NCBI GenBank assembly: GCA_910588025.1 | Contig: CAJUQG010000002.1 | Coordinates: 18,478 to 82,477, forward strand | Length of the DNA: 64,000 nt | Reading direction: 5' to 3' | From: an uncultured Bacilli bacterium | GTDB taxonomy: Bacteria > Bacillota_I > Bacilli_A > RF39 > UBA660 | Shown here: piece by piece, positions 2,258 through 17,732 of the stretch | How positions within the stretch are numbered: position 1 is the first letter of the stretch | How the letters are laid out: each line of letters starts with the position of its first letter | Notes under the pieces: generated by a model | The model's database searches: none | What the model was told of the DNA's origin: nothing | Seen by the model: only the letters and a program-made list of their open reading frames with translations | Translations under genes and position numbers: made by a program

Positions 2258-3106
2258 TTACTTAGTTTTAGGAACCATTTGATTTTCATTTAAGGCTTCA
2301 TAGTTTTCTGTAATGGTGATAAAAGAGGTAGGATCTATTAATTTTAACCCTGTACTTACTTTATAATAATCTGATGTTTTAATACTGCATAAAATTAATT
2401 CTGTTTTATTATTGGAATAACCACCTTTGGCTTCAAAAATGGTTACGTCATAGGATAAATCTTGCGTTAGGTATTTCTTCACTTCATTTCCTTTTTTGGT
2501 TTCTATATAAAATACTTTATGTTTATTAATTTCAAGCATAGTTTTATTACTTAAATTACTTATGAGAAGCAAAGATATAATAGAATAAATCATTTTTTCT
2601 ATTCCAAAAATAAAGCCTCCTAATAGGACAATGGAACCATCAATGTAGATCATAGATTTACTCATAGGAACTTTAAATTTTTTCTCGGCGATTTGATTTA
2701 ATATGTCAGTTCCTCCAGAAGTAAAGTTATTTTTAAATAATAAACCATAACCTATTCCACTTAGAGTTCCACCAATTATGGCAATGATTAATAATTCAAT
2801 GTCTTTTAAAACAACCCAATTATTTATGTTACTAGTTAGTTTGATAAAGATTGGAAACAAGATAGACCCTAATAATGAGTTTTTGGTTAATTCTTTTCCA
2901 AGAACAAAATAGCTTAATATTAATAATAGAATATTAGCAATTAAAATAAAGTTACTTTCCGATATCATGAATAAACTATGTAAGACAATTGCTAAACCAC
3001 TAACACCACCTGTATCAAATTGATATGGAGAAAAGAATAAGTTATAAGATATGGAAACGAAAAAAATTCCTATAATTACAATTCCGTATTTTTTGATATG
3101 TCGCAT
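2258..3106 (-). CDS. YitT-family membrane protein (DUF161/DUF2179)
   Basis: 282 aa. The N-terminal half is multi-TM and contains a GGVSGLAIV segment; the C-terminal half is soluble. This is the typical YitT/YqfU architecture. Confidence 0.6.
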   Translation of the reverse strand: MRHIKKYGIVIIGIFFVSISYNLFFSPYQFDTGGVSGLAIVLHSLFMISESNFILIANILLLILSYFVLGKELTKNSLLGSILFPIFIKLTSNINNWVVLKDIELLIIAIIGGTLSGIGYGLLFKNNFTSGGTDILNQIAEKKFKVPMSKSMIYIDGSIVLLGGFIFGIEKMIYSIISLLLISNLSNKTMLEINKHKVFYIETKKGNEVKKYLTQDLSYDVTIFEAKGGYSNNKTELILCSIKTSDYYKVSTGLKLIDPTSFITITENYEALNENQMVPKTK

Positions 3107-4195
3107 GAAATTCCCACCTTTGTTCTTAAAACAGATTCCATTATTTTTAATAGGTCTCCATCTAATATTTTATCCACATTGCTGGATTCATACCCACTTC
3201 GTAAATCTTTGATTAATTTATATGGCTCTAGTACATAATTTCTAATTTGACTACCCCATTCATTACTTTCTTGTATGCCTTTTATTTGGTTTAATTCTCG
3301 TACTTTTCTTTCTTCTTCTAATTGAAATAATTTACTTTTTAACATCTTCATTGCTTGGTCTTTATTTTTTAGTTGACTTCGCTCATTTTGACAAGTTACA
3401 ACAACTTTAGTGGGCAAATGGGTAATTCGAACAGCGGAATTTGATGTATTTACCGATTGTCCTCCAGCACCACTACTATGATATACATCAATTTTCAAGT
3501 CACTTTCTTTGATTTCTATATCGATATTCTGATTAAACTCTGGGGTAATACTTACGGAGGCAAAACTAGTATGTCTTCGTGCATTTGAGTCGAAGGGAGA
3601 AATTCTTACCAAACGATGAATGCCTTTTTCGCCTTTGAAATAACCATAAGAATAGTCTCCTTTAATTAATAAAATGGCGCTTTTAATTCCAGCTTCATCG
3701 CCTTTTTGTTCATCAATGATTTCATAAGTATAGTTGTTTTTTTCACAAAAGCGTTGATACATACGTAATAACATACTTGCCCAATCGCAAGATTCTGTTC
3801 CACCAGCACCTGGATGAATTTCTAAATAACAATTTAAATGATCAAATTTATCATTTAATAGCGTCTCAATTTCTAATTGTTCTATTTTTTCTTTTAATGA
3901 TGTAATTTCTTTTTCTAAAGAACTTATTTCGGTTTCGTCTAAAATGTTGATAAGTTCTAGGTTATCAACAAGTTCTTTTTTCACACTTAAAATAGAAGTT
4001 GTTGTTTTTTTTAAGTTAGAGCATTCTTTGTTAATAAGATTGGCGTTTTCTAAATTATCCCAAAAACCCTCTTTAGACATTTCTTGTTCTAACCATTCAA
4101 TTCTCTTCTTTTTACTTTCTAAGTCAAAGTGACCTCCCAATATCATTTACTTTATTTTGTAAATGTTCCAATAATGATTTTATTTCTGATTTCAT
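3076..4195 (-). CDS. prfB: peptide chain release factor 2, with programmed +1 ribosomal frameshift
   Basis: The main ORF (3076..4146) carries the RF2 hallmarks, including the GGQ motif (SGAGGQSVNTSNSAVRITHLPT). The upstream short frame ATG(4193-4195) MKSEIKSLLEHLQNKVNDIGRSL ends at an in-frame TGA. The site reads GGGAGG TCA CTT TGA C (plus-strand 4121-4138), which is the canonical internal SD + CUU UGA C shift site. An AGGAG RBS sits 7 nt upstream of the ATG. Confidence 0.9.
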
Positions 4196-4346
4196 TTTCT
4201 CCTCTTTTCTCTACTTATTATAACAAATTTATAATTTTTTTGGAGAAAGATGAACATAAAATTCATGGATTTTAATTAATCAATTACTGAACTGCTATTT
4301 TATTTTTTTATTTGAAAACTTTGAAGATTTGTACAATGATTTAACT

Positions 4347-4910
4347 TTATTCCATTGAATCATTTTTGACACAGCGGACCAAAGATTGTCCCTCATGATA
4401 ATTATACAAAGACATATTTACTGTATTCTGAGAAATTATTTGCTCAAAATATTGACCAATGGATAAATTATGAGAAAGTAAGCCTTTTTCGCGATCTAAG
4501 TTTTGAGATTCTTTTGAATCTTTCAAACTTAAAAGATTAAGACTTAGTATAAGTTGATGATTTTTAGACTCTGCTAATTCTTTCGCTTTTTCATAATTAT
4601 CAAACACTTTTTCAACGGTAACTAATTGATATGTTGGATTACAATATAACGGCTCTTTGGTATTATAATTATATTTTTTTAAAGATGTTTTAAATTCCAG
4701 AAAATCTGTAAAAGGAAAAATTACATCATATTTTTCTTCTTTCATTCCATAGCCAAAATATTCAATGCTTGATTTTTTTAGATAACATTTTGATACAATG
4801 AATCCTCTTGTTACATTATTATAATTTTCTAACCAACCGCCAAGCTCTTTTAACTCTAGTACAGCATATTTTACGGGTAAATCATATATTTCTTGTTTCA
4901 TTTTTTTCAC
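4347..4910 (-). CDS. hypothetical protein (187 aa, soluble, no recognisable motif)
   Basis: Clean ORF with coding-like composition and no family assignment from the sequence. Confidence 0.5.
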   Translation of the reverse strand: MKKMKQEIYDLPVKYAVLELKELGGWLENYNNVTRGFIVSKCYLKKSSIEYFGYGMKEEKYDVIFPFTDFLEFKTSLKKYNYNTKEPLYCNPTYQLVTVEKVFDNYEKAKELAESKNHQLILSLNLLSLKDSKESQNLDREKGLLSHNLSIGQYFEQIISQNTVNMSLYNYHEGQSLVRCVKNDSME

Positions 4911-5302
4911 CTATTTGAATTATAACATTTTTTAAGATTAAATTACTACTAAATACTAATTTTGTTGGAGTTTATCAATATGAATGGAAATACTTTTTTG
5001 AGCAACTAAAAACAAGAATATTAATCATTATTTATAGTAATATTATTGCTATAAATTTCATGAAACAAATATTAAGTAATCTATAATTTTATCTTTTGTA
5101 TTAATACAAATACTACTATGTAATTGAACAAATAATTGATTCAATCAACAAAATAACATTGAAGATTCATAATAAAAAACACTACAAATTATATTTAATC
5201 GTTATGATACCAATAATATTTTTTGCGTTAATGTTTAACTTTCTATCTCTTATTATATTATTTTTGTAGAATTTATTTATTGAATAAGCAAATATCTATT
5301 AT

Positions 5303-7090
5303 TTAGACACATGGATGTGGACAATCATTACAGTTATATAATTCTTTTTTTCTAATCAATTTTAAACTTTTACCTTGATTTAGTATAATTGGCTTTTCTT
5401 CTCCTACTTCTAATTGTACTTTCATTTCACTGTTACTCATCGTTTGTAAGTGATTTCGAACTAATTCCCAACCGTTTCTAGTCATGATATGAACAGGAAT
5501 TTTTACTCCTACTTGAGCTATGGCATTTGGTTTAATATATTCTTTCACATATTTAGAAGCGCACGACCATACGATATCTGCATTCTCTAACATAGTCTTA
5601 GCTGTTTTTTCATCTATTCCTGTTGAACATAAAGCAAATTTATAAATTGTTATACCTTCTTTTTCCAACTCTTTTAGTTGATTTAAAAGTTTATTATCTT
5701 GAGCTGCAAACGTAACGGCTATTTTTTTGTATCCTTTTTCTATGGCTTGTTTTACACCTGTTATTTGGTCAATATTTGCTGAATATGGAAAGACAGGAAT
5801 AATTTTAGATTCTCTTGCTTCATTCATTATATTTTCTGATGGACTAGTATAAAATAATCCAGTCATTCTTTTAACCGCCCCTTGGGTGTTCGTATTATTT
5901 GTCGTAATAATAGTTCCTAAATTATTGGAAACTATTACAGCTGCATCCAACATATCATTTTTAAATGCCGAAGCTATTGTTTCACTAGCACCAAATAAAA
6001 CATTTGCTTCACAAGAATTAAGGGGACGAGATGTATCAAAGTATCCGCCTTTTATAACAATGTTATTTATTAAATTACACATCATTTTTGTTTGTGTTTC
6101 AGTATTTTCTTTTCTAATTGCTTCAATAAATTTTTCACTTTCACTTCCTCCAACTTCATATAGAAGTTTAATCATTAATGGACAATATTTAATTGGGACA
6201 GGTGTGGCTTTAACGGCCTGTAACTCATCATTTATTTTTTGTAGAATTACATAGCTACCAAACATTCTGGTAATGTGCATTTCTTTCATAGCATAAAAAT
6301 CTCTCAATACACGATTTATATTTTTAGCTACTTGATCATCATTCCAATTATTCCAATCATCCATATACATTGTTAATTTGTCATTAGTAATGGTTATATC
6401 TAATATTTGAGTGTTAAAATGTAAGCCCCAACTAAACTTTTCATTATTAAATCTATTTAAAAAGTATTCTATTAAACCTTTTTGTTGAAAGTGATTATAA
6501 TAATCTATACTTTGTTCATCCATATCAAAATATTTTTCAACATGAGGATTTTTTAAAGGCACAGTATACTTATATACTCTTCCCATTTCTGAATAATAGT
6601 ATTTTAACTCTCCTTCTAATAATTGCATGTCTTCATCATTTGTCTTATATAAAGGTATTTCTTGCTTACCTATTTTTAACGTTTTGGCAATCTTTTCGGT
6701 ATTTTTATAATAATCTAATACTTTAGTTTTTAACATATCTTTATATTTTAGACAATTATTATCATCTTGTAAATTATAGAACATATAATCTCTTCTAGAC
6801 TTAATAATGGCACTTTTATAATCACAGCCCATCAAATAATAATAATTTATTCCTATTCCATCTCTGCTTTCATACGATGGGAGCATCACACGAAATGATG
6901 CGTCGCCATTCTTAATTTCCTGATCATCAAATCCTAATAATTGATAAACTTCTATTGCTTTTGTTCCAAAACCAAATTGATTAAAATCAATAAGCATTGC
7001 TTCACTTTCTTTATTCGTAAAACTTCCATCTTCTTTTACATAGCCCTTTTTAGTTTCTAAAATATATTTAAGTCCACTGTGACTTGCCAT
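5303..7090 (-). CDS. uncharacterised two-domain protein (595 aa). The C-terminal ~250 aa have a Rossmann-like beta-alpha pattern and a terminal Cys cluster CNDCPHPCV.
   Basis: Long uninterrupted ORF with a GAAAGAAGG RBS 8 nt upstream. It is transcribed divergently from a LysR regulator. I cannot place it in a known family. Confidence 0.6.
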   Translation of the reverse strand: MASHSGLKYILETKKGYVKEDGSFTNKESEAMLIDFNQFGFGTKAIEVYQLLGFDDQEIKNGDASFRVMLPSYESRDGIGINYYYLMGCDYKSAIIKSRRDYMFYNLQDDNNCLKYKDMLKTKVLDYYKNTEKIAKTLKIGKQEIPLYKTNDEDMQLLEGELKYYYSEMGRVYKYTVPLKNPHVEKYFDMDEQSIDYYNHFQQKGLIEYFLNRFNNEKFSWGLHFNTQILDITITNDKLTMYMDDWNNWNDDQVAKNINRVLRDFYAMKEMHITRMFGSYVILQKINDELQAVKATPVPIKYCPLMIKLLYEVGGSESEKFIEAIRKENTETQTKMMCNLINNIVIKGGYFDTSRPLNSCEANVLFGASETIASAFKNDMLDAAVIVSNNLGTIITTNNTNTQGAVKRMTGLFYTSPSENIMNEARESKIIPVFPYSANIDQITGVKQAIEKGYKKIAVTFAAQDNKLLNQLKELEKEGITIYKFALCSTGIDEKTAKTMLENADIVWSCASKYVKEYIKPNAIAQVGVKIPVHIMTRNGWELVRNHLQTMSNSEMKVQLEVGEEKPIILNQGKSLKLIRKKELYNCNDCPHPCV

Positions 7091-7110
7091 AATAAACCTT
7101 CTTTCTTTTT

Positions 7111-7138
7111 ATAGAAATTCTGCGCGTCTCTTTCTAAT
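7111..7138. promoter_or_regulatory. candidate LysR-type operator (TAGAAA-N13-TTTCTA dyad) in the divergent intergenic region
   Basis: ATAGAAATTCTGCGCGTCTCTTTCTAAT is a dyad with a GC-rich centre inside an AT-rich 120-bp intergenic region between the 595-aa gene and the LysR gene. Confidence 0.3.
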
Positions 7139-7209
7139 CGCATTATAGTTTATTTTGTGGTATAAATATAATATATATTTTTTATATTAAGTATAAGGAG
7201 AATTTATAG

Positions 7210-8109
7210 ATGAATATTAATTATGAATCTTATAAAATTTTTTATTTTGTAGCAATGGAAGGAAACATGTCAAAAGCTGCCAATCATTTACTTATTTCAC
7301 AACCGGCTGTTACCTGGCAGATAAAATCACTTGAAGAGCAATTAAACATAACGTTATTCACTCGTACTAAAAAAGGCGTCTCTTTAACTGAAGAAGGAAA
7401 ATTGTTATTTGAATATGTAAAACAAGGAGTGGAGTGTTTTACTAATGGTGAAAATATGTTAACAAATATAAAAAACTTAGATTATGGCATTATATCAATT
7501 GGCGCGAGTACTACTGTTAGTAAGCATGTTTTAATGCCTTATCTAGAAGTGTTTCATGAGAAATATCCCAATATTGAGATAAAAATAGTGAATGCTCTTA
7601 CAGAAAATCTCATTAAAGATCTTAAAAAAGGTAATTTGGATATGCTTGTACTTAATTTACCTATGAATGAAACAAAAGATTTAAAAATTCAAAAGGTTTT
7701 GAATGTACAAGATATTTTTGTTGGAAACAAAAGATATTACGAATTAACGAAAGGTAATATTACCTTAGAGAAATTAAATAATTATCCTTTACTTTTTCAA
7801 AAGCGCCCTTCTAATACTAGAACTTTTTTGGACAATTATTTACACAAAAATAATACCGTCTTAATACCTAAAACAGAAATAGTTAGTTATAATTTAATAA
7901 TGGATTTTGTAAAAAGTGGATTTGGAATAGGATACGCTACCAAAGAATTTATTAAAGATGATTTAAATAAGTCTTTATTTGAAATAAAAGTTACACCTAA
8001 AATTCCAGCAAGATATATTGGAATCGCAACACTTAATAAAACTATACCTAATTATAGTGTCAAAAAATTAATTCATCTTATGATAAATGATAAAAATATT
8101 AATCATTAA
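7210..8109 (+). CDS. LysR-family transcriptional regulator
   Basis: N-terminal HTH YKIFYFVAMEGNMSKAANHLLISQPAVTWQIKSLEEQLNITLFTRTKKGVSLT, which is the LTTR signature. 299 aa with a C-terminal substrate-binding domain. An AAGGAG RBS is present. Confidence 0.85.
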   Translation: MNINYESYKIFYFVAMEGNMSKAANHLLISQPAVTWQIKSLEEQLNITLFTRTKKGVSLTEEGKLLFEYVKQGVECFTNGENMLTNIKNLDYGIISIGASTTVSKHVLMPYLEVFHEKYPNIEIKIVNALTENLIKDLKKGNLDMLVLNLPMNETKDLKIQKVLNVQDIFVGNKRYYELTKGNITLEKLNNYPLLFQKRPSNTRTFLDNYLHKNNTVLIPKTEIVSYNLIMDFVKSGFGIGYATKEFIKDDLNKSLFEIKVTPKIPARYIGIATLNKTIPNYSVKKLIHLMINDKNINH

Positions 8110-8145
8110 AAGAATAAACTTATCTATCTGATTACAAATATTATA

Positions 8146-8455
8146 ATAATTCTAAATATTTCCTTAACATCTCTATTTCAAGCCTTGTTATTAAGTTAAT
8201 AAAATCTGTGTAATCACCAATTGTATGTGCTTTATCTACTGCTTCGTAATATTTTAGTCTATCCTCTTTTTTTATTATTACTGGATTATATCCATGATTC
8301 ATTAAATCTAAATTCATAAGTAGCCTTGAGGTCCTACCGTTACCATCAACAAAGGAAGAATTTTAACCAATTCTCCACATAATAAGGCTTCATGAAATTC
8401 TGGAACTTTTAAATAATTAGTAGGAATATGAGTTGCACCTTTAATCATTTTATTT
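8146..8455 (-). pseudogene. Fic-family protein gene remnant (3' two-thirds, with internal deletions)
   Basis: About 85% nucleotide identity to 10440..10800, the 3' part of the intact Fic gene at 10431..11360, but with gaps and frame breaks. No intact ORF. Confidence 0.7.
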
Positions 8456-8467
8456 ATAATATTTAAT

Positions 8468-8530
8468 TTATTTGTTTATATTTCGCCATTTCATTTTTGA
8501 TTACTTTTACTAAAAAAGAATGTTAACACT
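8468..8530. repeat. ~50-bp direct repeat, copy 1 (second copy at 12680..12760)
   Basis: TTCATTTTTGATTACTTTTACTAAAAAAGAATGTTAACACTC matches TTCATTTTTTGATTAGTTTTTACTAAAACAAAAAGGAATGTTAACA... upstream of the integrase gene. Confidence 0.7.
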
Positions 8531-8537
8531 CTCTATT

Positions 8538-9425
8538 TTAATCAATTAATAATTCTTTTTCTTCATTAACTTGTTTTTGTAATAATTCTAATTCTTTGAT
8601 ATTCTTATTGTCTTTTAGTACTTTCATTTGTCTTCTTGCGGAATTATTAAGTCTTACTAATCTCTCACTTTGAGGTACTTTTTCTTCAATCAATTCAGCA
8701 TTCGTATTTTGAAGATTATTTAAAATTACTAAATGTAGTAAATCAGTATAATCTCTCATGTTACCTTCTTTTGCCAATTCTGGATTATTATCTCTCCATT
8801 CTTTAGCTGTCATACCAAATAATGCAACATTTAAAACATCTGCTTCTTCAGCATATACAAATTTCTTTTGAGCTTCAGTAAGAGTTGGAACTATATAAGT
8901 TTTTACTGCATCAGTATGAACTACATAATTTAATTTAGATAATAGTCTATTTGCTTGCCAATCAATTTTCTCCTGATATGCTTCATTACTTTTTAATCGT
9001 TCAAATTCTTTTATTAAATATAGCTTAAATTCAGGGCTTAACCAACTAGCAAATTCAAACGCAATATCTGGATGAGCAAAAGTTCCTTTACTATATTTTC
9101 CGCTACTTGGAATTATTCCAATAGCATTAAAATCCTTTTTCCAACGATTAGGTGTCATCGTAAAACGATTATATGGAGCCTCATCAATTTTAATTCTGTG
9201 AAATTCCACGGAATTAAAATCTTCATTATTAATTTCTTCCCATAAACTATAATAATCAAATGAATTTTTATTTGACATCCAATTTCTAATTACACCAGAT
9301 GGATCTTCAGAATTTGCTTGTCTAGCTAAATCAGTTAATGAAATATAATTTACATTACCTACTCTTAAAATTCCTACTTTATTTTCTTTTACTATTATCT
9401 CTGTAGTTACTATATCTTTTTTCAT
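8538..9425 (-). CDS. KilA-N domain protein (phage/mobile-element DNA-binding protein)
   Basis: The N-terminus ...NYISLTDLARQANSEDPSGVIRNWMSNKNSFDYYSLWEEINN is a typical KilA-N domain; the C-terminal half is coiled-coil-like. It lies inside the mobile-element remnant. Confidence 0.7.
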   Translation of the reverse strand: MKKDIVTTEIIVKENKVGILRVGNVNYISLTDLARQANSEDPSGVIRNWMSNKNSFDYYSLWEEINNEDFNSVEFHRIKIDEAPYNRFTMTPNRWKKDFNAIGIIPSSGKYSKGTFAHPDIAFEFASWLSPEFKLYLIKEFERLKSNEAYQEKIDWQANRLLSKLNYVVHTDAVKTYIVPTLTEAQKKFVYAEEADVLNVALFGMTAKEWRDNNPELAKEGNMRDYTDLLHLVILNNLQNTNAELIEEKVPQSERLVRLNNSARRQMKVLKDNKNIKELELLQKQVNEEKELLID

Positions 9426-9586
9426 TACATCACCTCACTTTTTTTAATTTTAAAAGGATGTTCACATACCATTGTTGTTTACATCCTTTATTTTTAGGGC
9501 ATTTAAGCCAAATTTTTAATTATTTACAAACAAATATGAATTTGTTAACATTTTTTAAATTTGCAAAATCCTAGCAGCCCATTTAT

Positions 9587-9636
9587 TTATCTCACTTTCC
9601 GCAGCAATTTTTGTACTTTTTGCCCGAACCACATGT
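9587..9636. repeat. imperfect direct copy of the secA 3' terminus (attachment-site repeat)
   Basis: TTATCTCACTTTCCGCAGCAATTTTTGTACTTTTTGCCCGAACCACATGT is about 38/50 identical to the true secA end at 12811..12860. On the minus strand it still encodes ...TCGSGKKYKNCCGK*, the SecA C-terminal zinc-finger tail, with synonymous changes. Confidence 0.75.
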
Positions 9637-9867
9637 TCTATCAAATTCAGTATTTATAGCACTTATGGTATTACTGGAATTATTGGTATTTTAGGGAAAA
9701 AGTGGTTCCGAAGTATCAGATATTTATGGTATTTATAGTACTATGATTACTATAAATATTTCATCCAATGGGAACAAAATGGGAACATTGTGCTCATTCG
9801 TTCACTAAATCCACTTAAATTATAAACTAAATAATAGATTCAATCAATAACAATGACAAATTGTGCT

Positions 9868-10429
9868 CTAAAAACGCCTTGATAATACACCAACAGTTCT
9901 TAATAAATCGCTTGAATTTTCATATGCATACTTTCGAACATCAAACACTATTTTTGTAAATAAACTATTAATCATTTTTACAAGTTTGATAAATGAACCA
10001 GCATATAGAGTTATCTCTTCATCATCGACTTTAAATGTATAGTCAAATAGAGATAAACTCCCACTTCCAGATGATTTTATTCTAACTCCATGCATCTTAT
10101 GTTGGTATTTATTTCTTACTTTTCTTATCTTTTCTAAAAAATCATAATTTTCTTTTAAAATTTCATTATAATCATTGCTTAAGTATTTTATCTGTTCATT
10201 GTATTCTAATAAACCATCACTGTTTTTAAATTCCAATTGTTTGGTTTTTTTGTTATATGAATATGGAATCAATCTGGGAATATTTTGAATAATTTCTAGT
10301 ATAAATTCTTCACCATTTTCAAAATCATCTATTACATCAATTCCACATAATTTTATTAATTTAATTTAAATGGTATAAAGTTTCAAAGTACCCAAAAAGT
10401 GCATTTGCTATTTCAACATTCATATGCAT
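9868..10429 (-). pseudogene. hypothetical protein with an Rx4H (HEPN-like) motif, interrupted by a +1 frame break; translationally coupled to the Fic gene
   Basis: A short frame MHMNVEIANALFGYFETLYHLN* starts at 10427-10429, 1 nt after the Fic stop. It is out of frame by +1 with the 134-aa ORF 9868..10272, which itself stays open upstream to about 10400 (IKLIKLCGIDVIDDFENGEEF...). The downstream part contains EKIRKVRNKYQHKMHG, which matches R-x4-H. Confidence 0.4.
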
Positions 10430-10430
10430 T

Positions 10431-11360
10431 TTACCTCAACAATTCTAAATATTTCTTTAATGTTTCTATTTCCAGTTTAACTATTAATTTAACAAAATCT
10501 GTATAATCACCAGTTGTATGAGCTTTATCTAATGCTTCATAATATTCTAATCTATCTTCCTTTTTTATTATTACTGGATTAAACCCATAATTCATTAAAT
10601 CTAAATTCATAAGTAACCTTGCAGTTCTACCATTACCATCTACAAATGGATGAATTTTAACTAATTCACCATGTAATAAAGCAGCTTGAATAATTGGATG
10701 AAAATCATTCCAATTTTCGTAATTTAAAACTAACTTTTCCATTAACTCTGGAACTTTCAAGTAATCTGGTGGGATATGAGTTGCACCTTTTATAGTAACA
10801 TTTTCTCTTCTATATCTTCCTGCATTTTCATCACCAATATCTTTTAAAACTAATTGATGAATACCTTTGATATTCCACTCAGTAATCGGGTTATCTTCTT
10901 TTACCAAATCGTTTAAATATAAAATAGCCTTTTCATGATTGATAGCTTCTAAATGCTCTTTTATTGATTTTCCACCAACTGTAATTCCTTCTAATACAAC
11001 TTGTGTTTCTCTAAGTGTCAAAGTATTTCCTTCTATACCATTACTATTGTATGTCCATTCAAGATTAATTGAATCTTCTAATGATCTTAATGTTTCTTTT
11101 GGTATCGGTCTTTTATTATCTAATTCTCTCTTCAACTCATCAACTTCATTAAAATAATTAGCCTCTAAATCAATAATAAATTCTGTAAAATCTGGTTTAA
11201 TAACTCTTTTGTCTACTGGTTTTATTGCATCAACTGGAATATTCCAACTGTTTCCGTTTTTAACAGCTCCTTCAATCCTGCCATCTTGTAATAATTGCCT
11301 TATTCTTCTTTCACTAATATTCCATTTTTTTACAGCTTCTTTAGTAGTCATAAAATCCAA
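10431..11360 (-). CDS. Fic-family protein (class II: N-terminal HTH plus SxxxEG inhibitory motif plus Fic core)
   Basis: Fic motif HPFVDGNGRTARLL. The inhibitory-helix motif is TYNSNGIEGNTLT. The N-terminal ~55 aa look like an excisionase-type HTH (MDFMTTKEAVKKWNISERRIRQLLQDGRIEGAV). Confidence 0.85.
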   Translation of the reverse strand: MDFMTTKEAVKKWNISERRIRQLLQDGRIEGAVKNGNSWNIPVDAIKPVDKRVIKPDFTEFIIDLEANYFNEVDELKRELDNKRPIPKETLRSLEDSINLEWTYNSNGIEGNTLTLRETQVVLEGITVGGKSIKEHLEAINHEKAILYLNDLVKEDNPITEWNIKGIHQLVLKDIGDENAGRYRRENVTIKGATHIPPDYLKVPELMEKLVLNYENWNDFHPIIQAALLHGELVKIHPFVDGNGRTARLLMNLDLMNYGFNPVIIKKEDRLEYYEALDKAHTTGDYTDFVKLIVKLEIETLKKYLELLR

Positions 11361-11426
11361 AACGCTTCACCTCTATATATCATTATACCGCTAACGGTAG
11401 TTTTGGTCAACCATATAAGACTAATT

Positions 11427-12631
11427 TTATCTATATTTAATAATTTCATCTATAATATCTGATTTAACTGTTTGTTCAAATTTTTCACTTGCTTCTTTAA
11501 GTGTTTCATCAGTTGTTGATATATAATAATTTTCAGTAGCTTCTATCTTGCTATGCCCTAAAATGTCAGCTACATCTCTAATTTCTACACCATTTCTTAG
11601 ACTCTTTGTTGCATAACTTCCTCGTAAGTCATAGAATCTGCAATGTTCTATTCCCAATTCTGTATGAACCACTTTATATGGATATTTCATAATATCAGTT
11701 CCACTATAAACACCATTTTCTTTTCTAAATACTAAATCAAGATTTTCCAACAATTTAGCTTTTCTAACTGTTTCAACAATTCTATATTCTATTATTTTTC
11801 CATATTTATTTTTAACTTCTTCTAGATGATAATAGTGATACATTTTACCATATAACTTTTTAAAATTTTCTTGTTTCCTTTTATAATTTTTTAGAGCTAC
11901 TAATAAAGTATTACAAATATATACTTTTCTTACTCCATTTATTGTTTTTGTTGTACCTAAAAACCATTTCCCCTTTTCATCTTTAACTTTACTATAAACA
12001 TTATGCTCTATACTAATTATTCTCTTTTCAAGATCAATATTATCCCAAGTTAGTGCACAGACTTCACCGGTTCTCATTCCTGTAAAACATGCAACTAGAA
12101 ATGCACAGGTGAATGTTTCATTATTTTTAAATCTCTTTAAAATAAAATTCAATTTCTTCTTGAGTATAAATATGCCTTATAGTCTTTCTTTAATTGTTCT
12201 ATGTGCGGCAAACTTATAGTTATTGCTGGATTATAATTAATAAATCCAAATATATCAGTTGCAACTCTAAATGAACATTTTATTACTTTTACAAAATTTT
12301 TTAAATATCCATAAGAATAATCATATCTTCTACATACATCTATTAAATATTTATTTAACTGATAACTTGTAATTGCATTAAGTCTATAATGACCTAAATA
12401 AATCTTTAAATACTTATTAACAATAACTGAATACTCTTCTATTGTTCTATATTTTAAATTCACTTTGCAATAATTATCTAGCCAATAATCCAAATAATCT
12501 CCATATGACATATAGCTTTCCGTTTTACATCCTCCATTTTGATATTCATCATAAGCTTTTTGTCCTGCGGTAAATGCAGCATTTTTTGTTTTAAATCCAC
12601 TTTCTTTTTCCATTAACTTTTGTTGCTTCAA
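11427..12631 (-). pseudogene. tyrosine site-specific integrase, split by a frameshift into an N-terminal part (12149..12631) and a catalytic part (11427..12152)
   Basis: The catalytic domain has R (FTGMRTGEV), H-x-x-R (HCRFYDLRGSYAT) and the Tyr region (LGHSKIEATENYYI). The N-terminal ORF is a SAM-like core-binding domain. The two frames overlap at an AAGAAGAAA tract near 12149-12165. Confidence 0.7.
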
Positions 12632-12679
12632 AGCGATATTGATACACCTTTCCTCTTTTTTGAATACTAATCATTTTTA

Positions 12680-12760
12680 TCATCTCCCTTTCATTTTTTG
12701 ATTAGTTTTTACTAAAACAAAAAGGAATGTTAACATTTTATCTATGTTAACACTCCTTTG
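12680..12760. repeat. ~50-bp direct repeat, copy 2 (with an internal GTTAACA duplication), between the integrase start and the secA stop
   Basis: Matches 8468..8530 and contains ATGTTAACATTTTATCTATGTTAACAC. Confidence 0.7.
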
Positions 12761-12812
12761 TTTATAAGTATTTTAGCTATTTATTTTTTAATTTTAGCTA
12801 AACTTTTTTATG

Positions 12813-15299
12813 CTACTTTCCACAACAATTCTTATATTTCTTTCCTGAACCACATGGACAAGTATCATTTCTTCCTATTTTCTTATCATTTTTGACAGTA
12901 TGACCAACTTTTTCTTTTCCATCGTTGGAAGAACCTTTTATTACTTGTTTTCTTTCAATATTTTGTTCAATTTCGGCTTTTAATAAGAATTGTGCTACAT
13001 CGCTATCTATTTTATCTAATAGACGTTCAAATAGTTCGTAACCTTCCATGGTATATGCTTGAAGGGGATTGGTTTGACCATATCCTCTTAACATAATTCC
13101 GTCTTTTAAATGTTCCATTTCATTTAGGTGATTTACCCATAAAGAATCAATTACACGTAATGTAATGGCTTTCTCAAATTCTTCGAAAGCTGGAGCATCT
13201 TTAATTTTCTCTTCATAATCATCGTTAATTTTATTAAATAATAAATCAATAATTTCTTCTTCGCTCTTATCTTTTAATTCTTCTACAGATAGTTTTTCAC
13301 CTTTGATAAAATTAGAATTTACATATTCGATAATTTCTTGTTTATCATTATCTGTTAAATATCCTTCTGGAGCTATATGACTTTCAATTATATTGGTAAT
13401 CGTATTTTTGAAGGTATCTTTTATATTTTCATGAATACTTTCTAGTTCTAATACTTCATTTCTTTTTTCATAAATAATTAAGCGTTGTTCATTTACTACA
13501 TTGTCATAGTCTAATAAACTTTTACGCATATCGAAGTTATTTCCTTCAACTTTCTTTTGGGCTGATTCAATACTTCTAGTTAATGATTTGGAACGAATTG
13601 CTTGACTTCCTACCATTCCTAAAGCTTCAACCATTCTTTTTACTTTATCTGTTCCAAAACGGCGCATTAATTCATCTTCAAAAGATACAAAGAATTGACT
13701 CATTCCTGGATCACCTTGACGTCCAGCACGTCCACGTAATTGGTTATCAATACGACGAGATTCATGACGCTCTGTACCAATAACACAAAGTCCACCAAGT
13801 TCTTTTACACCTTCTCCAAGTTTAATATCTGTTCCACGACCTGCCATATTGGTAGCAATTGTAATTGCTCCCTTTTCTCCCGCTTTCGCAATGATTTCAG
13901 CTTCACGAGCATGATTTTTAGCATTTAATATTTCATGTTTTAATTTAGCTTTTGTAAGTAATGAACCTAAATATTCGTTTGCTTCTACAGAGATTGTACC
14001 CACTAAGATTGGTTGTCCAGTTTCATGAATTTCTTTAATTGTATTTACAATTGCTTCATATTTACCAGCCATATTAGAATATAATAAATCGGCACGGTCT
14101 TCACGAATTACTGGCTTGTTCGTTGGAATTTGAATAACATACATGTTGTAAATATTTCTAAATTCTTCTTCTTCTGTTTTTGCAGTACCTGTCATACCAG
14201 ATAATTTTTTATACATTCTAAATAAGTTTTGGAATGTAATCGTTGCCATTGTTCTAGTTTCTTCATTTATTTTAACATTTTCTTTGGCTTCTATTGCTTG
14301 ATGTAATCCTTCGCTAAATTGACGACCTTTCATTAAACGTCCAGTAAATTGATCTACAATAATTACTTCATTGTTATCTACAACATAATCTACATCTTTT
14401 TTAAAAGCATAATTTGCCTTTAGAGCTTGATTTACATGATGAACTAATGCTGAATTTTCTAAATCATATAAATTTTTGATATGAAAATATTGTTCAACTT
14501 TTGCAACACCTTTTTCCATTAAAGAGGTATTTTTAGTTTTTGGATCAAAATCATAATCTTCATTTTCAACTAAATTTTGAACAGCGGCATTTGCATCCAT
14601 ATATAAATCTTTTGTATTTGATTTACCTCCAGAAATAATTAAAGGAGTACGAGCTTCATCAATTAAAATTGAGTCAACTTCATCGACAATACAAAAGTTT
14701 AATGGTCTTTGAACACGGTCTGCTGCTTGAACTACCATATTATCTCTTAAATAGTCGAACCCTATTTCACTATTCGTAGAATATAAAATATCTGCATTGT
14801 ATGCTTCTTGTTTTTCTTTTGGACTCATTTCACGTAAATTTAAGCCTATTGTTAAGCCTAAAAATTCAAAAATGCTACCCATCCATTCAGAGTCACGTTT
14901 GGCAAGGAATTCGTTTACTGTTACGATATGAACACCTTCACCAGTTAAAGCATTTAAATAAGCTGGCATGGTTTCTGTTAAGGTTTTTCCTTCTCCAGTT
15001 TTCATTTCGGCAATATTACCATAATGAATGGCAAGTCCTCCTAAAATTTGGACAAAATAAGGCTTTTCTCCAATTACACGATAATCCGCTTCTCTTACTA
15101 CTGCATAAGCTTCGACTAAAATATCATCTAAAGTTTCTCCATTTGCTAATCTTTCTTTTAATTCGCTTGTTTTATTTTTTAGTTCTTCATCAGATAATTT
15201 GCTCATTGTTTCTTCTAAAGCAACTACTTCATTTGCTAAAACTTCGAATCTTTTTAATTCTTTATATTCTGAGTCGATTAATTTTCTAAATAATCCCAT
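12813..15299 (-). CDS. secA: preprotein translocase ATPase SecA
   Basis: 828 aa spanning the full SecA domain set, with the C-terminal zinc-binding tail CPCGSGKKYKNCCGK. Confidence 0.95.
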   Translation of the reverse strand: MGLFRKLIDSEYKELKRFEVLANEVVALEETMSKLSDEELKNKTSELKERLANGETLDDILVEAYAVVREADYRVIGEKPYFVQILGGLAIHYGNIAEMKTGEGKTLTETMPAYLNALTGEGVHIVTVNEFLAKRDSEWMGSIFEFLGLTIGLNLREMSPKEKQEAYNADILYSTNSEIGFDYLRDNMVVQAADRVQRPLNFCIVDEVDSILIDEARTPLIISGGKSNTKDLYMDANAAVQNLVENEDYDFDPKTKNTSLMEKGVAKVEQYFHIKNLYDLENSALVHHVNQALKANYAFKKDVDYVVDNNEVIIVDQFTGRLMKGRQFSEGLHQAIEAKENVKINEETRTMATITFQNLFRMYKKLSGMTGTAKTEEEEFRNIYNMYVIQIPTNKPVIREDRADLLYSNMAGKYEAIVNTIKEIHETGQPILVGTISVEANEYLGSLLTKAKLKHEILNAKNHAREAEIIAKAGEKGAITIATNMAGRGTDIKLGEGVKELGGLCVIGTERHESRRIDNQLRGRAGRQGDPGMSQFFVSFEDELMRRFGTDKVKRMVEALGMVGSQAIRSKSLTRSIESAQKKVEGNNFDMRKSLLDYDNVVNEQRLIIYEKRNEVLELESIHENIKDTFKNTITNIIESHIAPEGYLTDNDKQEIIEYVNSNFIKGEKLSVEELKDKSEEEIIDLLFNKINDDYEEKIKDAPAFEEFEKAITLRVIDSLWVNHLNEMEHLKDGIMLRGYGQTNPLQAYTMEGYELFERLLDKIDSDVAQFLLKAEIEQNIERKQVIKGSSNDGKEKVGHTVKNDKKIGRNDTCPCGSGKKYKNCCGK

Positions 15300-15419
15300 A
15301 GTATTTACCCTCCATCAAATGTATTTTATCATAATCTTAAAAAAAATAGTATTTTTCTTTCTATAATTCCTATTACTAGTTATTTTAACGCATTTTTGAT
15401 TTTATGAAAAGCTTTAACT

Positions 15420-17126
15420 TTATTTCTGTATTTTTTTCCTACTCATACTTTTTTGATTTTTTAAATGTTCATCAATTCTAAAGAAAATACAAATTTGTTT
15501 TTCGTTTTTCTTTTTTAATATTTCATAATTATCTTCGTTTTCATCGCGAATAATTTGCGCATCACTACAAAATTCTTGAAAATCAATCATTTGATAAGTT
15601 CCATTTTGATATTCTACTAAAACGTTTGGTATTATTGTTTGATTCACCGGAACTTTAAAATTCCAAAAAGTATTTTCACTATCTAAATCATATTTTATTT
15701 CATAAAGATCATAATAATAGTTTTCTGGTGTTTTATATTTTTTACTTTCATTATCATAATAGTAATATATTTTATAATCAGTTAGGAAACGCCACATTAT
15801 TTCTTTTCCTTGAATTTTTAAAATTTCTTTTATATTCGCTAAAAAGTATTCTAACATGTTTTGATATAAAGACGCGTTTTCACCGATTTGAAATTCTTTT
15901 TGAGATAAGTATTTTTGTAGTTCATTTATTTCACAAATCTTTTCTAAATTTATTTCAGAATTTAATAAAGAATACAAATAATAATCTAAATAGATTTGAA
16001 GTGTTTGAGGATCCTTTTGATTAAATCCATGAGTGAAAGATGCTAAATCTAGATTTTTTTGCTTTAAATTATTATCCATTTTTTCTAAAAATTGCTGTTT
16101 TGACTCTTGATCGAGATTCAGATAATTTAAAGGCATTTTGTCTGTTACTAAAAAACTTAAAAGCCATAGTGAATAACTTTCTTCTTTGGAAATTTCTTCT
16201 TGCAAAGATTCTCGATTTATTAAGTTTAAGTCATCAGATAAAGAACACGTTTTGTTATTTTTTGAGCTTTGTATTATGGTTGTAGAAAAATAGTTATTAT
16301 GAACACGAACAGGATAAGTATCACTTTTTCTAGATAAAAAGGAACCAGAAGGAATAAAGGTAGGTTCTCTATCTTGAGAAGTTAAGATTTGATTTAATAG
16401 ATGACGTTCAATGGGAATTGTTGAATATTGATTGATAATTAAATTAGTTTTTTTAGAGAATTGATAAGTAAATTTTATGGATTCATTATTGGATAATCTA
16501 TTTAATTGTTCTAAATCATTTAAAAATGAATTCATTTCTTGTTCTGTTAAAGATAATCTTGCTCTTAAAGATTTATATAAAAGTTCTTCTTTGTTAGTTA
16601 AAAGATAATAGACAACATTTTCTTCTCCGATGATATCACACATAATAGATAAACGAAGGTTGCCAACATTTTTTTCTTTATTTCCTAAAACAATGGTTTG
16701 AATACAGTCGAAAATGAGAGAATTTTCTTTTTGATAGTCATAAATATCTTTACTCATTAGTTGATGTATATCAGGTAAATCTGAAACTTTAAGGCGATGG
16801 GCGTAATGGTCCAATAAATAATTCATTGCCATTTGATATTCACTATTAAAGTATGATACATAATCTTGTATATCTTTTAAAATAGCATTTCTTAAAATTT
16901 GATCAGCATTCTCTCGATCAAAGAAACATTCAATATTCATATTAATTTGGTCGATTTTAGAATAACCATTTTTAGGAATAGACCCTAGTATGAGAAAGAA
17001 AAGAAGCAAATAATAGTTGCGCTTTATATTCTCTTTTACTTTTGGCTTTTTTTTCTTGGGATATAAATCTTTATCATCTAAATTTTTTTTCGGATTAACA
17101 TTTCGAAAATAATTATTTTTTTGCAT
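15420..17126 (-). CDS. hypothetical protein (568 aa from the ATG at 17124-17126; Lys-rich N-terminus, one TM, large Asn/Tyr/Leu-rich domain)
   Basis: Uninterrupted ORF between hpf and secA. An AAAGAGG RBS lies 7 nt upstream of MQKNNYF. No family recognised. Confidence 0.55.
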   Translation of the reverse strand: MQKNNYFRNVNPKKNLDDKDLYPKKKKPKVKENIKRNYYLLLFFLILGSIPKNGYSKIDQINMNIECFFDRENADQILRNAILKDIQDYVSYFNSEYQMAMNYLLDHYAHRLKVSDLPDIHQLMSKDIYDYQKENSLIFDCIQTIVLGNKEKNVGNLRLSIMCDIIGEENVVYYLLTNKEELLYKSLRARLSLTEQEMNSFLNDLEQLNRLSNNESIKFTYQFSKKTNLIINQYSTIPIERHLLNQILTSQDREPTFIPSGSFLSRKSDTYPVRVHNNYFSTTIIQSSKNNKTCSLSDDLNLINRESLQEEISKEESYSLWLLSFLVTDKMPLNYLNLDQESKQQFLEKMDNNLKQKNLDLASFTHGFNQKDPQTLQIYLDYYLYSLLNSEINLEKICEINELQKYLSQKEFQIGENASLYQNMLEYFLANIKEILKIQGKEIMWRFLTDYKIYYYYDNESKKYKTPENYYYDLYEIKYDLDSENTFWNFKVPVNQTIIPNVLVEYQNGTYQMIDFQEFCSDAQIIRDENEDNYEILKKKNEKQICIFFRIDEHLKNQKSMSRKKIQK

Positions 17127-17198
17127 ACAAAAACCTCTTTTAAGCTTATATTTTAGCACTTTTTTGGCAAAAGAAAAGAAAAACTTTTTTAGCTTTTC

Positions 17199-17732
17199 TT
17201 ATCTTACATTTATGATCCCATATGTTTCATTTTTTCTTTTATAAACTACGGAAGTGCAACCTTCTGATTCATTTTTAAAAATAAAGAAATCGTGTCCTAA
17301 TAATTCCATTTGTAAAATAGCTTCTTCTTCATCCATTGGTTTCATTTCAAAATCTTTACGACGCATTATTTTCTTTTCGTCTTCTTCCTCTTCTGTTACT
17401 TCAAAAGCCATATTCATCTCAGGAATTACATTGTTTTTAAATTTACGGTTTAATCTTGTTTTATTTTTTCTAATTTGTCTTTCTAATTTGTCTACGACTA
17501 AATTAATAGCGGCATATAAATCTTCCATTGATTCTTCTGCTCGTAGTGTAAATTTTTTGGTTGGAACAGTTACTTCGATTTTTTGGCTTAAACCATTTAT
17601 ACGAATTAACACATTGGCTGTTATTTCTTCTGGATTTTCAAAGTAGTTATCTAACTTTTTTAATTTTTCCATTACTTGTGTTTTAATGGCTGAAGTAATT
17701 TCTACTTTGTCTCCACGAATATTTAATTTCAT
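17199..17732 (-). CDS. hpf: ribosome hibernation promoting factor (long form)
   Basis: 177 aa, MKLNIRGDKVEITSAIKTQVMEKL... with the S30AE/YfiA N-domain and a C-terminal dimerisation domain. Upstream of secA, as in Bacilli. Confidence 0.85.
   Translation of the reverse strand: MKLNIRGDKVEITSAIKTQVMEKLKKLDNYFENPEEITANVLIRINGLSQKIEVTVPTKKFTLRAEESMEDLYAAINLVVDKLERQIRKNKTRLNRKFKNNVIPEMNMAFEVTEEEEDEKKIMRRKDFEMKPMDEEEAILQMELLGHDFFIFKNESEGCTSVVYKRKNETYGIINVR

Follow-up and report, generated by a model that had tools for sequence, protein, structure and literature searches.

A gene for a LysR-type transcriptional regulator (LTTR) and a gene for a 595-residue protein are divergently arranged in a stretch of 64,000 nucleotides from an uncultured Bacilli bacterium (contig CAJUQG010000002.1); this whole stretch is referred to below as the window. 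The GC content of the window is low (26-33%), and the two open reading frames (ORFs) are separated by a gap of 119 bp. We located both ORFs and matched LTTR domains in the smaller product, which confirmed the divergent arrangement described in a first-pass annotation of the same DNA. The two genes are as follows.

5303..7090, minus strand: gene for the 595-residue DUF2099-family protein (ORF, with the stop codon at 5303-5305 included)
7210..8109, plus strand: gene for the LysR-type transcriptional regulator of 299 residues (ORF with HTH_1 and LysR_substrate domains)

Residues 325-548 of the 595-residue protein matched Pfam DUF2099 (PF09872) with a score of 187.4 bits and an E-value of 3.5e-55, covering model positions 38-256 of 257 and passing the gathering threshold of 25 bits. 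The best match in NCBIfam was TIGR03275 (methanogenesis marker 8, Mmp8), which aligned to residues 299-550 at 177.9 bits and did not reach the curated cut-off of 232.7 bits for this hypothetical equivalog. Judged from these profile matches, membership of the DUF2099/Mmp8 family is almost beyond doubt, and the earlier description of a protein of no recognisable family was wrong. Measured against the refuting outcome named in the first-pass annotation, a clear match to a well-characterised family, the result is intermediate: the Pfam match is clear, but the family is poorly characterised. DUF2099 is already catalogued, and an identical protein is present in NCBI as 'DUF2099 family protein [Bacilli bacterium]'.

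A search with the 595-residue protein yielded 349 homologues. When 1.84 billion representative proteins were scanned with the core of the protein (residues 272-595), only 216 clusters were obtained at E<=0.001, including proteins of ~286 and ~325-345 residues. Some of the relatives found by profile search were labelled by their sources as methanogenesis marker 8 (Methanothrix, Methanoperedens), and others came from Omnitrophota, Actinobacteria, Bathyarchaeia, Nitrososphaerota and Njordarchaeales. The core scan and the sources of the profile-search relatives indicated that the DUF2099 family is small, occurs mostly in uncultured lineages and is not confined to methanogens. Close relatives of the window protein, which we call the gut clade, were found in metagenome-assembled genomes (MAGs) of gut Bacilli, Clostridia and Anaerofustis.

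Archaeal Mmp8 (TIGR03275; PF09872) is homologous to the window protein from H272 to the C-terminus, and both carry YCPL (with C303), R355, FGASE, QG.G, CASK (with C510) and a C-terminus of the form P-x-P-hydrophobic. Unlike the TIGR03275 type, which is a single-domain protein of ~286 residues in methanogens, the window protein is twice as long, since an orphan N-terminus of 271 residues has been added, and it does not fit that type. It also has VSNNLGT where Mmp8 has VCDGAGT, possesses five or six additional invariant cysteines, among them those of a terminal CxxCPxPC motif, is found in non-methanogenic gut Firmicutes, and has a LysR partner gene. Identity to Mmp8-type proteins was only 25-35%.

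The lengths and sequences of the homologues, together with the superfamily alignment, allowed the protein to be divided into four parts.

6587..7090, minus strand: N-terminal cap 'A' (residues 1 to ~168, MASHSGLKY...)
6278..6586, minus strand: module 'B' (residues ~169-271, ...LKNPHVEKYF..YYN...), common to most members of the gut Firmicutes clade
5306..6277, minus strand: DUF2099/Mmp8-like core (residues 272-595), with a remote FrhB-like fold
5306..5332, minus strand: C-terminal cysteine tail CNDCPHPCV, clade motif C-x-[DN]-C-P-x-P-[CY]-[IV]-COOH

Searches of Pfam, NCBIfam and PDB sequences gave no match to the N-terminal ~271 residues, and a homologue search with the N-terminus alone returned four fragments only. 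The first-pass annotation had described a novel N-terminal region of ~330 residues; its orphan nature was borne out, while its length was reduced to ~271 residues, since relatives align from H272. Cap 'A' was restricted to the ~590-residue forms, and other members had either a MLKERK-type cap or none. Caps appear to have been swapped between closely related modules, because the locus whose LysR is closest to that of the window (L055, 88.7% identity) carries the other cap type. The cysteine tail was strictly C-terminal and was present in essentially all of the ~60 clade members, one of which has T in place of D/N, whereas in archaeal proteins and others that lie outside the clade the C-terminus reads P-x-P-L-[IV], with no tail cysteines. 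The peptides quoted in the first-pass annotation were found at residues 457-466 (IAVTFAAQDN), 504-513 (ADIVWSCASK) and 587-595 (CNDCPHPCV), and the alternation of strands and helices noted there for the C-terminal region was seen in an AlphaFold model.

The 299-residue regulator matched HTH_1 (E = 3.9e-18) and LysR_substrate (E = 4.3e-25), and no NCBIfam equivalog cut-off was reached (best score 140.9 bits, against 250). The top-scoring model in that search was 'selenium metabolism-associated LysR' (140.9 against 250); a link to selenium was dropped, since other LysR models scored alike. A scan of 185,579 species genomes provided a context sample of 65 loci, all from uncultured Firmicutes of the gut or of anaerobic digesters ('Bacilli', 'Tenericutes', Anaerofustis, Eubacteriaceae and Clostridiales MAGs), with some bins apparently mislabelled, for example as Muribaculaceae. 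A related LysR gene, 56-89% identical to that of the window in its product, adjoined the DUF2099 gene in 46 of the 65 loci, and it lay divergently upstream in every one of these except L029, where it was downstream. At 56-89% identity, the LysR was better conserved than the DUF2099 protein (47-69%). Clustering of all flanking ORFs revealed no conserved neighbour in the gut clade besides LysR. At least four other loci of the window's lineage (L010, L013, L050 and L068) have the pair located between secA and prfB. The LysR gene is a dedicated partner of the DUF2099 gene, and the pair is a conserved two-gene unit in gut Bacilli.

Among the LysR-less loci (Anaerofustis, Clostridia), no common partner was found; relatives of Anaerofustis stercorihominis are among the carriers of this LysR-less form. 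In five of them (L043, L049, L051, L053 and L060) an ORF of 331-695 residues belonging to one BLAST cluster often adjoined the DUF2099 gene, and some members of this cluster had a membrane-like N-terminus.

The arrangement in the window resembles that of known divergent LTTR pairs (CbnR/cbnA, BenM/benA, CysB-type, and the CmbR/CysL-type of Firmicutes) in that a regulator with HTH_1 and LysR_substrate domains faces a divergent target, and a dyad-like operator candidate lies in a common control region of ~120 bp, over the -35 position of the target. It differs from these pairs in that no equivalog was reached, the element of 25-28 bp is unusually AT-rich, and the target is a single gene and not a pathway operon. 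We aligned 46 non-redundant LysR-linked intergenic regions, anchored at the LysR start codon, and the control region of the window contains the following elements.

7158..7185, no strand assigned: AT-rich imperfect palindrome ATAAAwAATATATATTwTAyTTATAnCA, presumed LysR operator, near-invariant in 45 of 46 loci
7142..7147, minus strand: predicted -10 box TATAAT of the DUF2099 promoter, in a column block 90-99% conserved across the 46 loci
7112..7136, no strand assigned: dyad TAGAAA-N13-TTTCTA in the predicted 5' leader, lineage-specific, downstream of the -10 box and near the predicted transcription start
7097..7106, minus strand: purine-rich ribosome-binding site (AGAAAGAAGG) of the DUF2099 gene, read from the sequence

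The palindrome of 25-28 bp was near-invariant although the proteins have diverged to ~50% identity, and its pattern had a single match in the window, where 0.04 were expected. Separated by ~25 nt from the LysR ATG, it is followed by ~10 non-conserved bases, the conserved TATAAT and the DUF2099 leader, in which a ribosome-binding site ahead of the start codon is conserved in related loci. The DUF2099 promoter has no good -35 hexamer, and the palindrome covers that position, a geometry that would be typical of activator-dependent LTTR promoters. The position of the palindrome on LysR's own promoter region suggests that the regulator also controls its own gene. Dedicated LysR control through the putative element at 7158-7185 appears quite likely. 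A promoter and terminator scan was uninformative at 27% GC (29 sites, with 28.9 expected), and comparative conservation was used in its place.

The first-pass annotation had placed the LTTR control site elsewhere, at the TAGAAA-N13-TTTCTA dyad. The dyad is present at 7112-7136 and occurs once in the window, against 0.04 expected from shuffles, but it is not conserved: an AGAAA-N-TTTCT dyad was found in 9 of the 46 LysR-linked loci, and 19 of the 46 leaders, at 20-27 nt, are too short to hold it. It lies downstream of TATAAT and is absent from 37 of the 46 loci, whereas the palindrome is near-invariant in 45 of them. Its upstream arm resembles a duplicated purine-rich ribosome-binding site. The dyad is probably not an LTTR site and is probably a lineage-specific feature of the leader. 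A role as an RNA switch in the window is not claimed either, since the predicted fold of the leader RNA was no more stable than that of shuffled sequences (z +0.42); an Rfam scan of 4800-8700 at E<=1 returned nothing, and thus no known riboswitch or leader. In a sub-lineage of related loci (L002, L019, L020, L023 and L061), the leader ~45 nt before the DUF2099 start allows two mutually exclusive pairings, in which the partner of TTTCTT is AGAAAG upstream of it or the Shine-Dalgarno sequence AAGGAGG. The predicted minimum-energy fold in these leaders sequesters the ribosome-binding site (-5 to -8 kcal/mol), and the sub-lineage could carry a small translational switch that would be weak or absent in the window.

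We next turn to the residues that are conserved in the core. In the superfamily alignment, C303, R355, G367/S369/E370, G392, A449, D505 and P532 were invariant, and H272, P304, D382, T393, G404, T415 and C510-A-S were nearly so. Four cysteines, at positions 303, 388, 488 and 510 of the window protein, are invariant in a subfamily of proteins of ~330 residues from other bacteria. Positions 388, 488 and 510 map to the C-terminal ends of beta-strands in the AlphaFold model (E383-388, E481-488 and E506-509), and the C-terminal ends of the strands are the usual ligand crevice of alpha/beta domains. In the gut clade, C338, C360, C488, C587 and C590 were also invariant, and C594 was present in >90% of sequences, giving seven invariant cysteines and an eighth in >90%; of these only C303 and C510 are conserved family-wide. 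Position 388 is occupied by Ser in the gut clade, where VSNNLGT replaces VCDGAGT and the Cys is lost. Taking the alignment and the model together, the cysteine pattern fits a cysteine-based or metal-sulfur site that would have been remodelled in the gut clade.

The AlphaFold and Foldseek analyses suggested in the first-pass annotation gave a confident model and matches of remote similarity. The full-length model had a predicted local distance difference test score (pLDDT) of 84.3 and a predicted template modelling score (pTM) of 0.80, and the top three Foldseek matches were HCAR and two FrhB chains (E 0.0065-0.01). The DUF2099 core shares its fold with the FrhB/FdhB family, at a remote level of similarity. 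In a permissive Pfam scan, PF04422 (FrhB_FdhB_N) matched 8 of 31 superfamily members, the best at an E-value of 7e-4, below the 22-bit cut-off. It was the only secondary Pfam family matched by more than two of the 31 relatives, and its matches mapped after the invariant FGASE, over the ASE...IDxAV...GAGT stretch. The equivalent helix of FrhB holds the pyrophosphate of flavin adenine dinucleotide (FAD) at its N-terminus, the most conserved region, and four fully conserved cysteines of the Methanothermobacter marburgensis protein (Cys104, Cys134, Cys192 and Cys195) ligate a [4Fe-4S] cluster (PMC3591093). FrhB, FdhB, FpoF, the N-terminal part of Fsr and HCAR (PF04422, PF04432) are subunits with FAD and [4Fe-4S] that bind F420 or take electrons from ferredoxin; an evident counterpart of the IGKGK F420 loop of FrhB is missing from the window protein. 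Homology between the DUF2099 core and FrhB is probable. It rests on fold similarity and on sub-threshold Pfam matches, because sequence profiles miss the FrhB chains.

The genomic context of the more distant ~330-residue subfamily was analysed in 83 loci, mostly from a metagenome scan, and is of an iron or iron-sulfur (Fe-S) cofactor type. A P-loop ATPase of the MinD/NUBPL type with a 4Fe-4S insert was found in 51 loci and was immediately upstream of the DUF2099 gene in 29 of 78, and NifU_N was immediately downstream in 27 of 70. Other neighbours were methyltransferases (36 loci), metallo-beta-lactamase-fold proteins (33), NifX-like Nitro_FeMo-Co proteins (29), radical SAM proteins (21), DUF5320 (20), ARMT1-like proteins (19) and Fur (14), and genes for FeoAB and ferritin also occurred in these clusters. 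The slot directly before the gene for an IscU-type scaffold is often held by cysteine desulfurase, and here it is occupied by the ~330-residue DUF2099 gene. These relatives, beside NifU_N, are embedded in ORP-like clusters of anaerobes (NifX-like 'orange protein' domain, DUF5320, Fe-S ATPases of the MinD/NUBPL type), a cluster name known from Desulfovibrio; such neighbours were not seen in the clade of the window. In one relative (P0146, loci L074-L076), the DUF2099 gene, of ~292 codons, is directly preceded by genes for DUF2148, a corrinoid protein and a methyltransferase of the MttB family and is followed by one for a radical SAM protein, a setting unlike that of the Fe-S-type clusters. Contexts of single relatives were set aside as inconsistent: MttB with the corrinoid protein was found in L074, and complex-I-like genes were found in L082.

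We propose the following model for the pair. The LysR-type regulator would bind the palindrome at 7158-7185, over the -35 position of the DUF2099 promoter, and in response to a small-molecule co-inducer it would most likely activate the single divergent gene and autoregulate its own. The product would be a soluble cytoplasmic protein made of a variable N-terminal cap, an orphan alpha/beta module, the DUF2099 core and a CxxCPxPC tail. Its core may be a redox-active, cysteine-based or metal-sulfur (Fe-S)-binding catalytic domain, whose predicted active site comprises C303 and the C-terminal ends of three strands (383-388, 481-488 and 506-509). A nucleotide-type cofactor may sit at the invariant FGASE helix cap, in the region corresponding to the helix that binds the FAD pyrophosphate in FrhB. 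The pair might then serve an inducible, single-step transfer of electrons or sulfur on a small molecule.

We give somewhat better than an even chance to this reading as a whole, that is, to a single gene that is activated by an LTTR and encodes a cysteine-rich redox or metal-sulfur enzyme with an FrhB-like core. The odds for redox or metal-sulfur chemistry of the core, taken by itself, are about even. Several observations weigh against the proposal. The superposition with FrhB covers only ~150 of ~280 residues, or about half; the window protein itself has no PF04422 or PF04432 match at E<=1; and PDB sequence searches with the protein, two profiles and an archaeal member gave no meaningful match and no FrhB chain at E<=10. 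The cluster cysteines of FrhB (104, 134, 192 and 195) have no counterparts evident from the alignment of the window protein, in which only two cysteines are conserved family-wide. Spatial clustering of the cysteines is predicted from secondary-structure topology, and activation of the DUF2099 gene by LysR, as opposed to repression, from the geometry of the promoter. The Fe-S neighbourhood belongs to a different subfamily, while the gut clade is without partner genes besides LysR. Since the VCDGAGT loop with its Cys is replaced by VSNNLGT, the chemistry of the gut clade may differ from that of Mmp8 and of the forms linked to Fe-S clusters. Literature searches on DUF2099/Mmp8 returned no functional study and only a listing of TIGR03275.

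Much of the same evidence could be accommodated if the protein were not an oxidoreductase and acted as a carrier, donor or scaffold for sulfur or Fe-S clusters, for example as a sulfide or persulfide relay that stands in for cysteine desulfurase ahead of IscU-type scaffolds. Its induction in the gut clade might then depend on a LysR responsive to sulfur or cysteine status, a property of many LTTRs of Firmicutes. The cysteines are invariant, and in the ~330-residue subfamily the gene precedes NifU_N (27 of 70) and follows NUBPL-type Fe-S ATPases (29 of 78) in clusters that include Fur, FeoAB and ferritin. All methanogens are known to carry Mmp8, and many of them are without cysteine desulfurase and use sulfide directly. 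We nevertheless consider a carrier unlikely, given that these neighbourhoods are those of another subfamily, no Fe-S assembly gene adjoins the gut-clade loci, one of the four conserved cysteines is Ser there, and an FrhB-like fold favours transfer of electrons or hydride over sulfur relay. The idea overlaps with that of a redox enzyme and does not exclude it. True functional orthology with archaeal Mmp8, acquired by lateral transfer and retaining the same job, possibly linked to F420, would account for TIGR03275 being the best NCBIfam match and for the common FGASE, CASK, YCPL and P-x-P C-terminus. This is very unlikely, as the score is 177.9 bits against 232.7, identity is 25-35%, and the window protein has an extra N-terminus of 271 residues, a cysteine tail and an altered GAGT loop. 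The family is also found in Omnitrophota, Actinobacteria, Bathyarchaeia and Nitrososphaerota, and is thus not tied to methanogenesis; gut Bacilli are not known to make F420.

The proposal in the first-pass annotation, of a wholly new and family-less enzyme class whose controlling LTTR would bind the TAGAAA-N13-TTTCTA dyad, correctly identified a genuine LTTR with a divergent target that is enzyme-like and functionally unassigned. The dyad does exist and would rarely arise by chance (0.04 expected), and the N-terminal 271 residues are orphan. The C-terminal 324 residues, however, clearly belong to DUF2099, a Pfam match that largely refutes the family-less part of the proposal, and the control site is contradicted by the position of the dyad downstream of the -10 box, by its absence from 37 of 46 LysR-linked loci and by the near-invariance of the other element. 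In its original form, that proposal has little probability left. The lowest probability of all goes to the suggestion that the DUF2099 gene is cargo of a mobile or defence islet and has no metabolic role. KilA-N, Fic and split integrase ORFs do lie between LysR and secA, but neither LysR nor the DUF2099 protein matches PADLOC, the pair is kept without KilA-N or Fic neighbours in most loci, and it is stable between secA and prfB while the KilA-N and Fic genes vary.

Returning to the LTTR-activated redox or metal-sulfur enzyme, it is conceivable, though rather doubtful, that DUF2099/Mmp8 as a whole constitutes an FrhB-derived class of cysteine- or Fe-S-based enzymes acting in the sulfur or Fe-S cofactor metabolism of anaerobes, with the LysR-coupled form as an inducible, stand-alone and N-terminally elaborated offshoot. 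If this were true, a single bacterial gene with its own regulator would be a tractable starting point for finding what an orphan methanogenesis marker does. From the FrhB-like core, the spread outside methanogens and the Fe-S and LysR branches of the family, testable hypotheses can be derived on which cofactors are present, what the cysteines do and which compound is the inducer. The regulator is of practical use as well, as an operator/promoter reporter could reveal the inducer and then the substrate. We found no earlier description of the N-terminally extended, cysteine-tailed gut clade, of its pairing with a conserved LysR and operator, of the FrhB-like fold assignment, or of the Fe-S neighbourhood of the ~330-residue branch.

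The gene order over 3076-17732 of the window is hpf, a gene for a 579-residue protein, secA, ~8.6 kb of variable genes, prfB, yitT and tilS. The secA and prfB genes are normally adjacent in Firmicutes, as in Bacillus subtilis, so that in this lineage the interval between them resembles a hotspot of insertion. The 579-residue ORF between secA and hpf (15420-17159, minus strand) had no Pfam match, and a 187-residue ORF downstream of the DUF2099 gene (4347-4910, minus strand) had no family match and no homologue in related loci. A candidate phage-defence islet lies beside the LysR gene (8538-11360, minus strand), followed by a recombinase.

8538..9425, minus strand: KilA-N protein (PADLOC PDC-S22, E 2e-109)
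9868..10272, minus strand: ORF of 134 residues
10431..11360, minus strand: Fic-domain protein (PADLOC PDC-S04/SoFic, E ~1e-36)
11427-12631, minus strand: tyrosine recombinase as two overlapping ORFs (Phage_int_SAM_3, 160 residues; Phage_integrase, 241 residues)

The islet is not conserved with the LysR/DUF2099 pair, although in related genomes KilA-N and Fic genes recur, variably, within the interval between secA and prfB. The split tyrosine recombinase, at the edge of this insertion zone, is probably an integrase pseudogene that arose by a frameshift. A direct repeat of 220 nt (84% identity) and a further repeat of 50 nt relate 8145-8445 to 10438-10793, in the 3' part of the Fic gene, and the non-coding stretch at 8145-8445 after LysR is probably the remnant of a second Fic gene.

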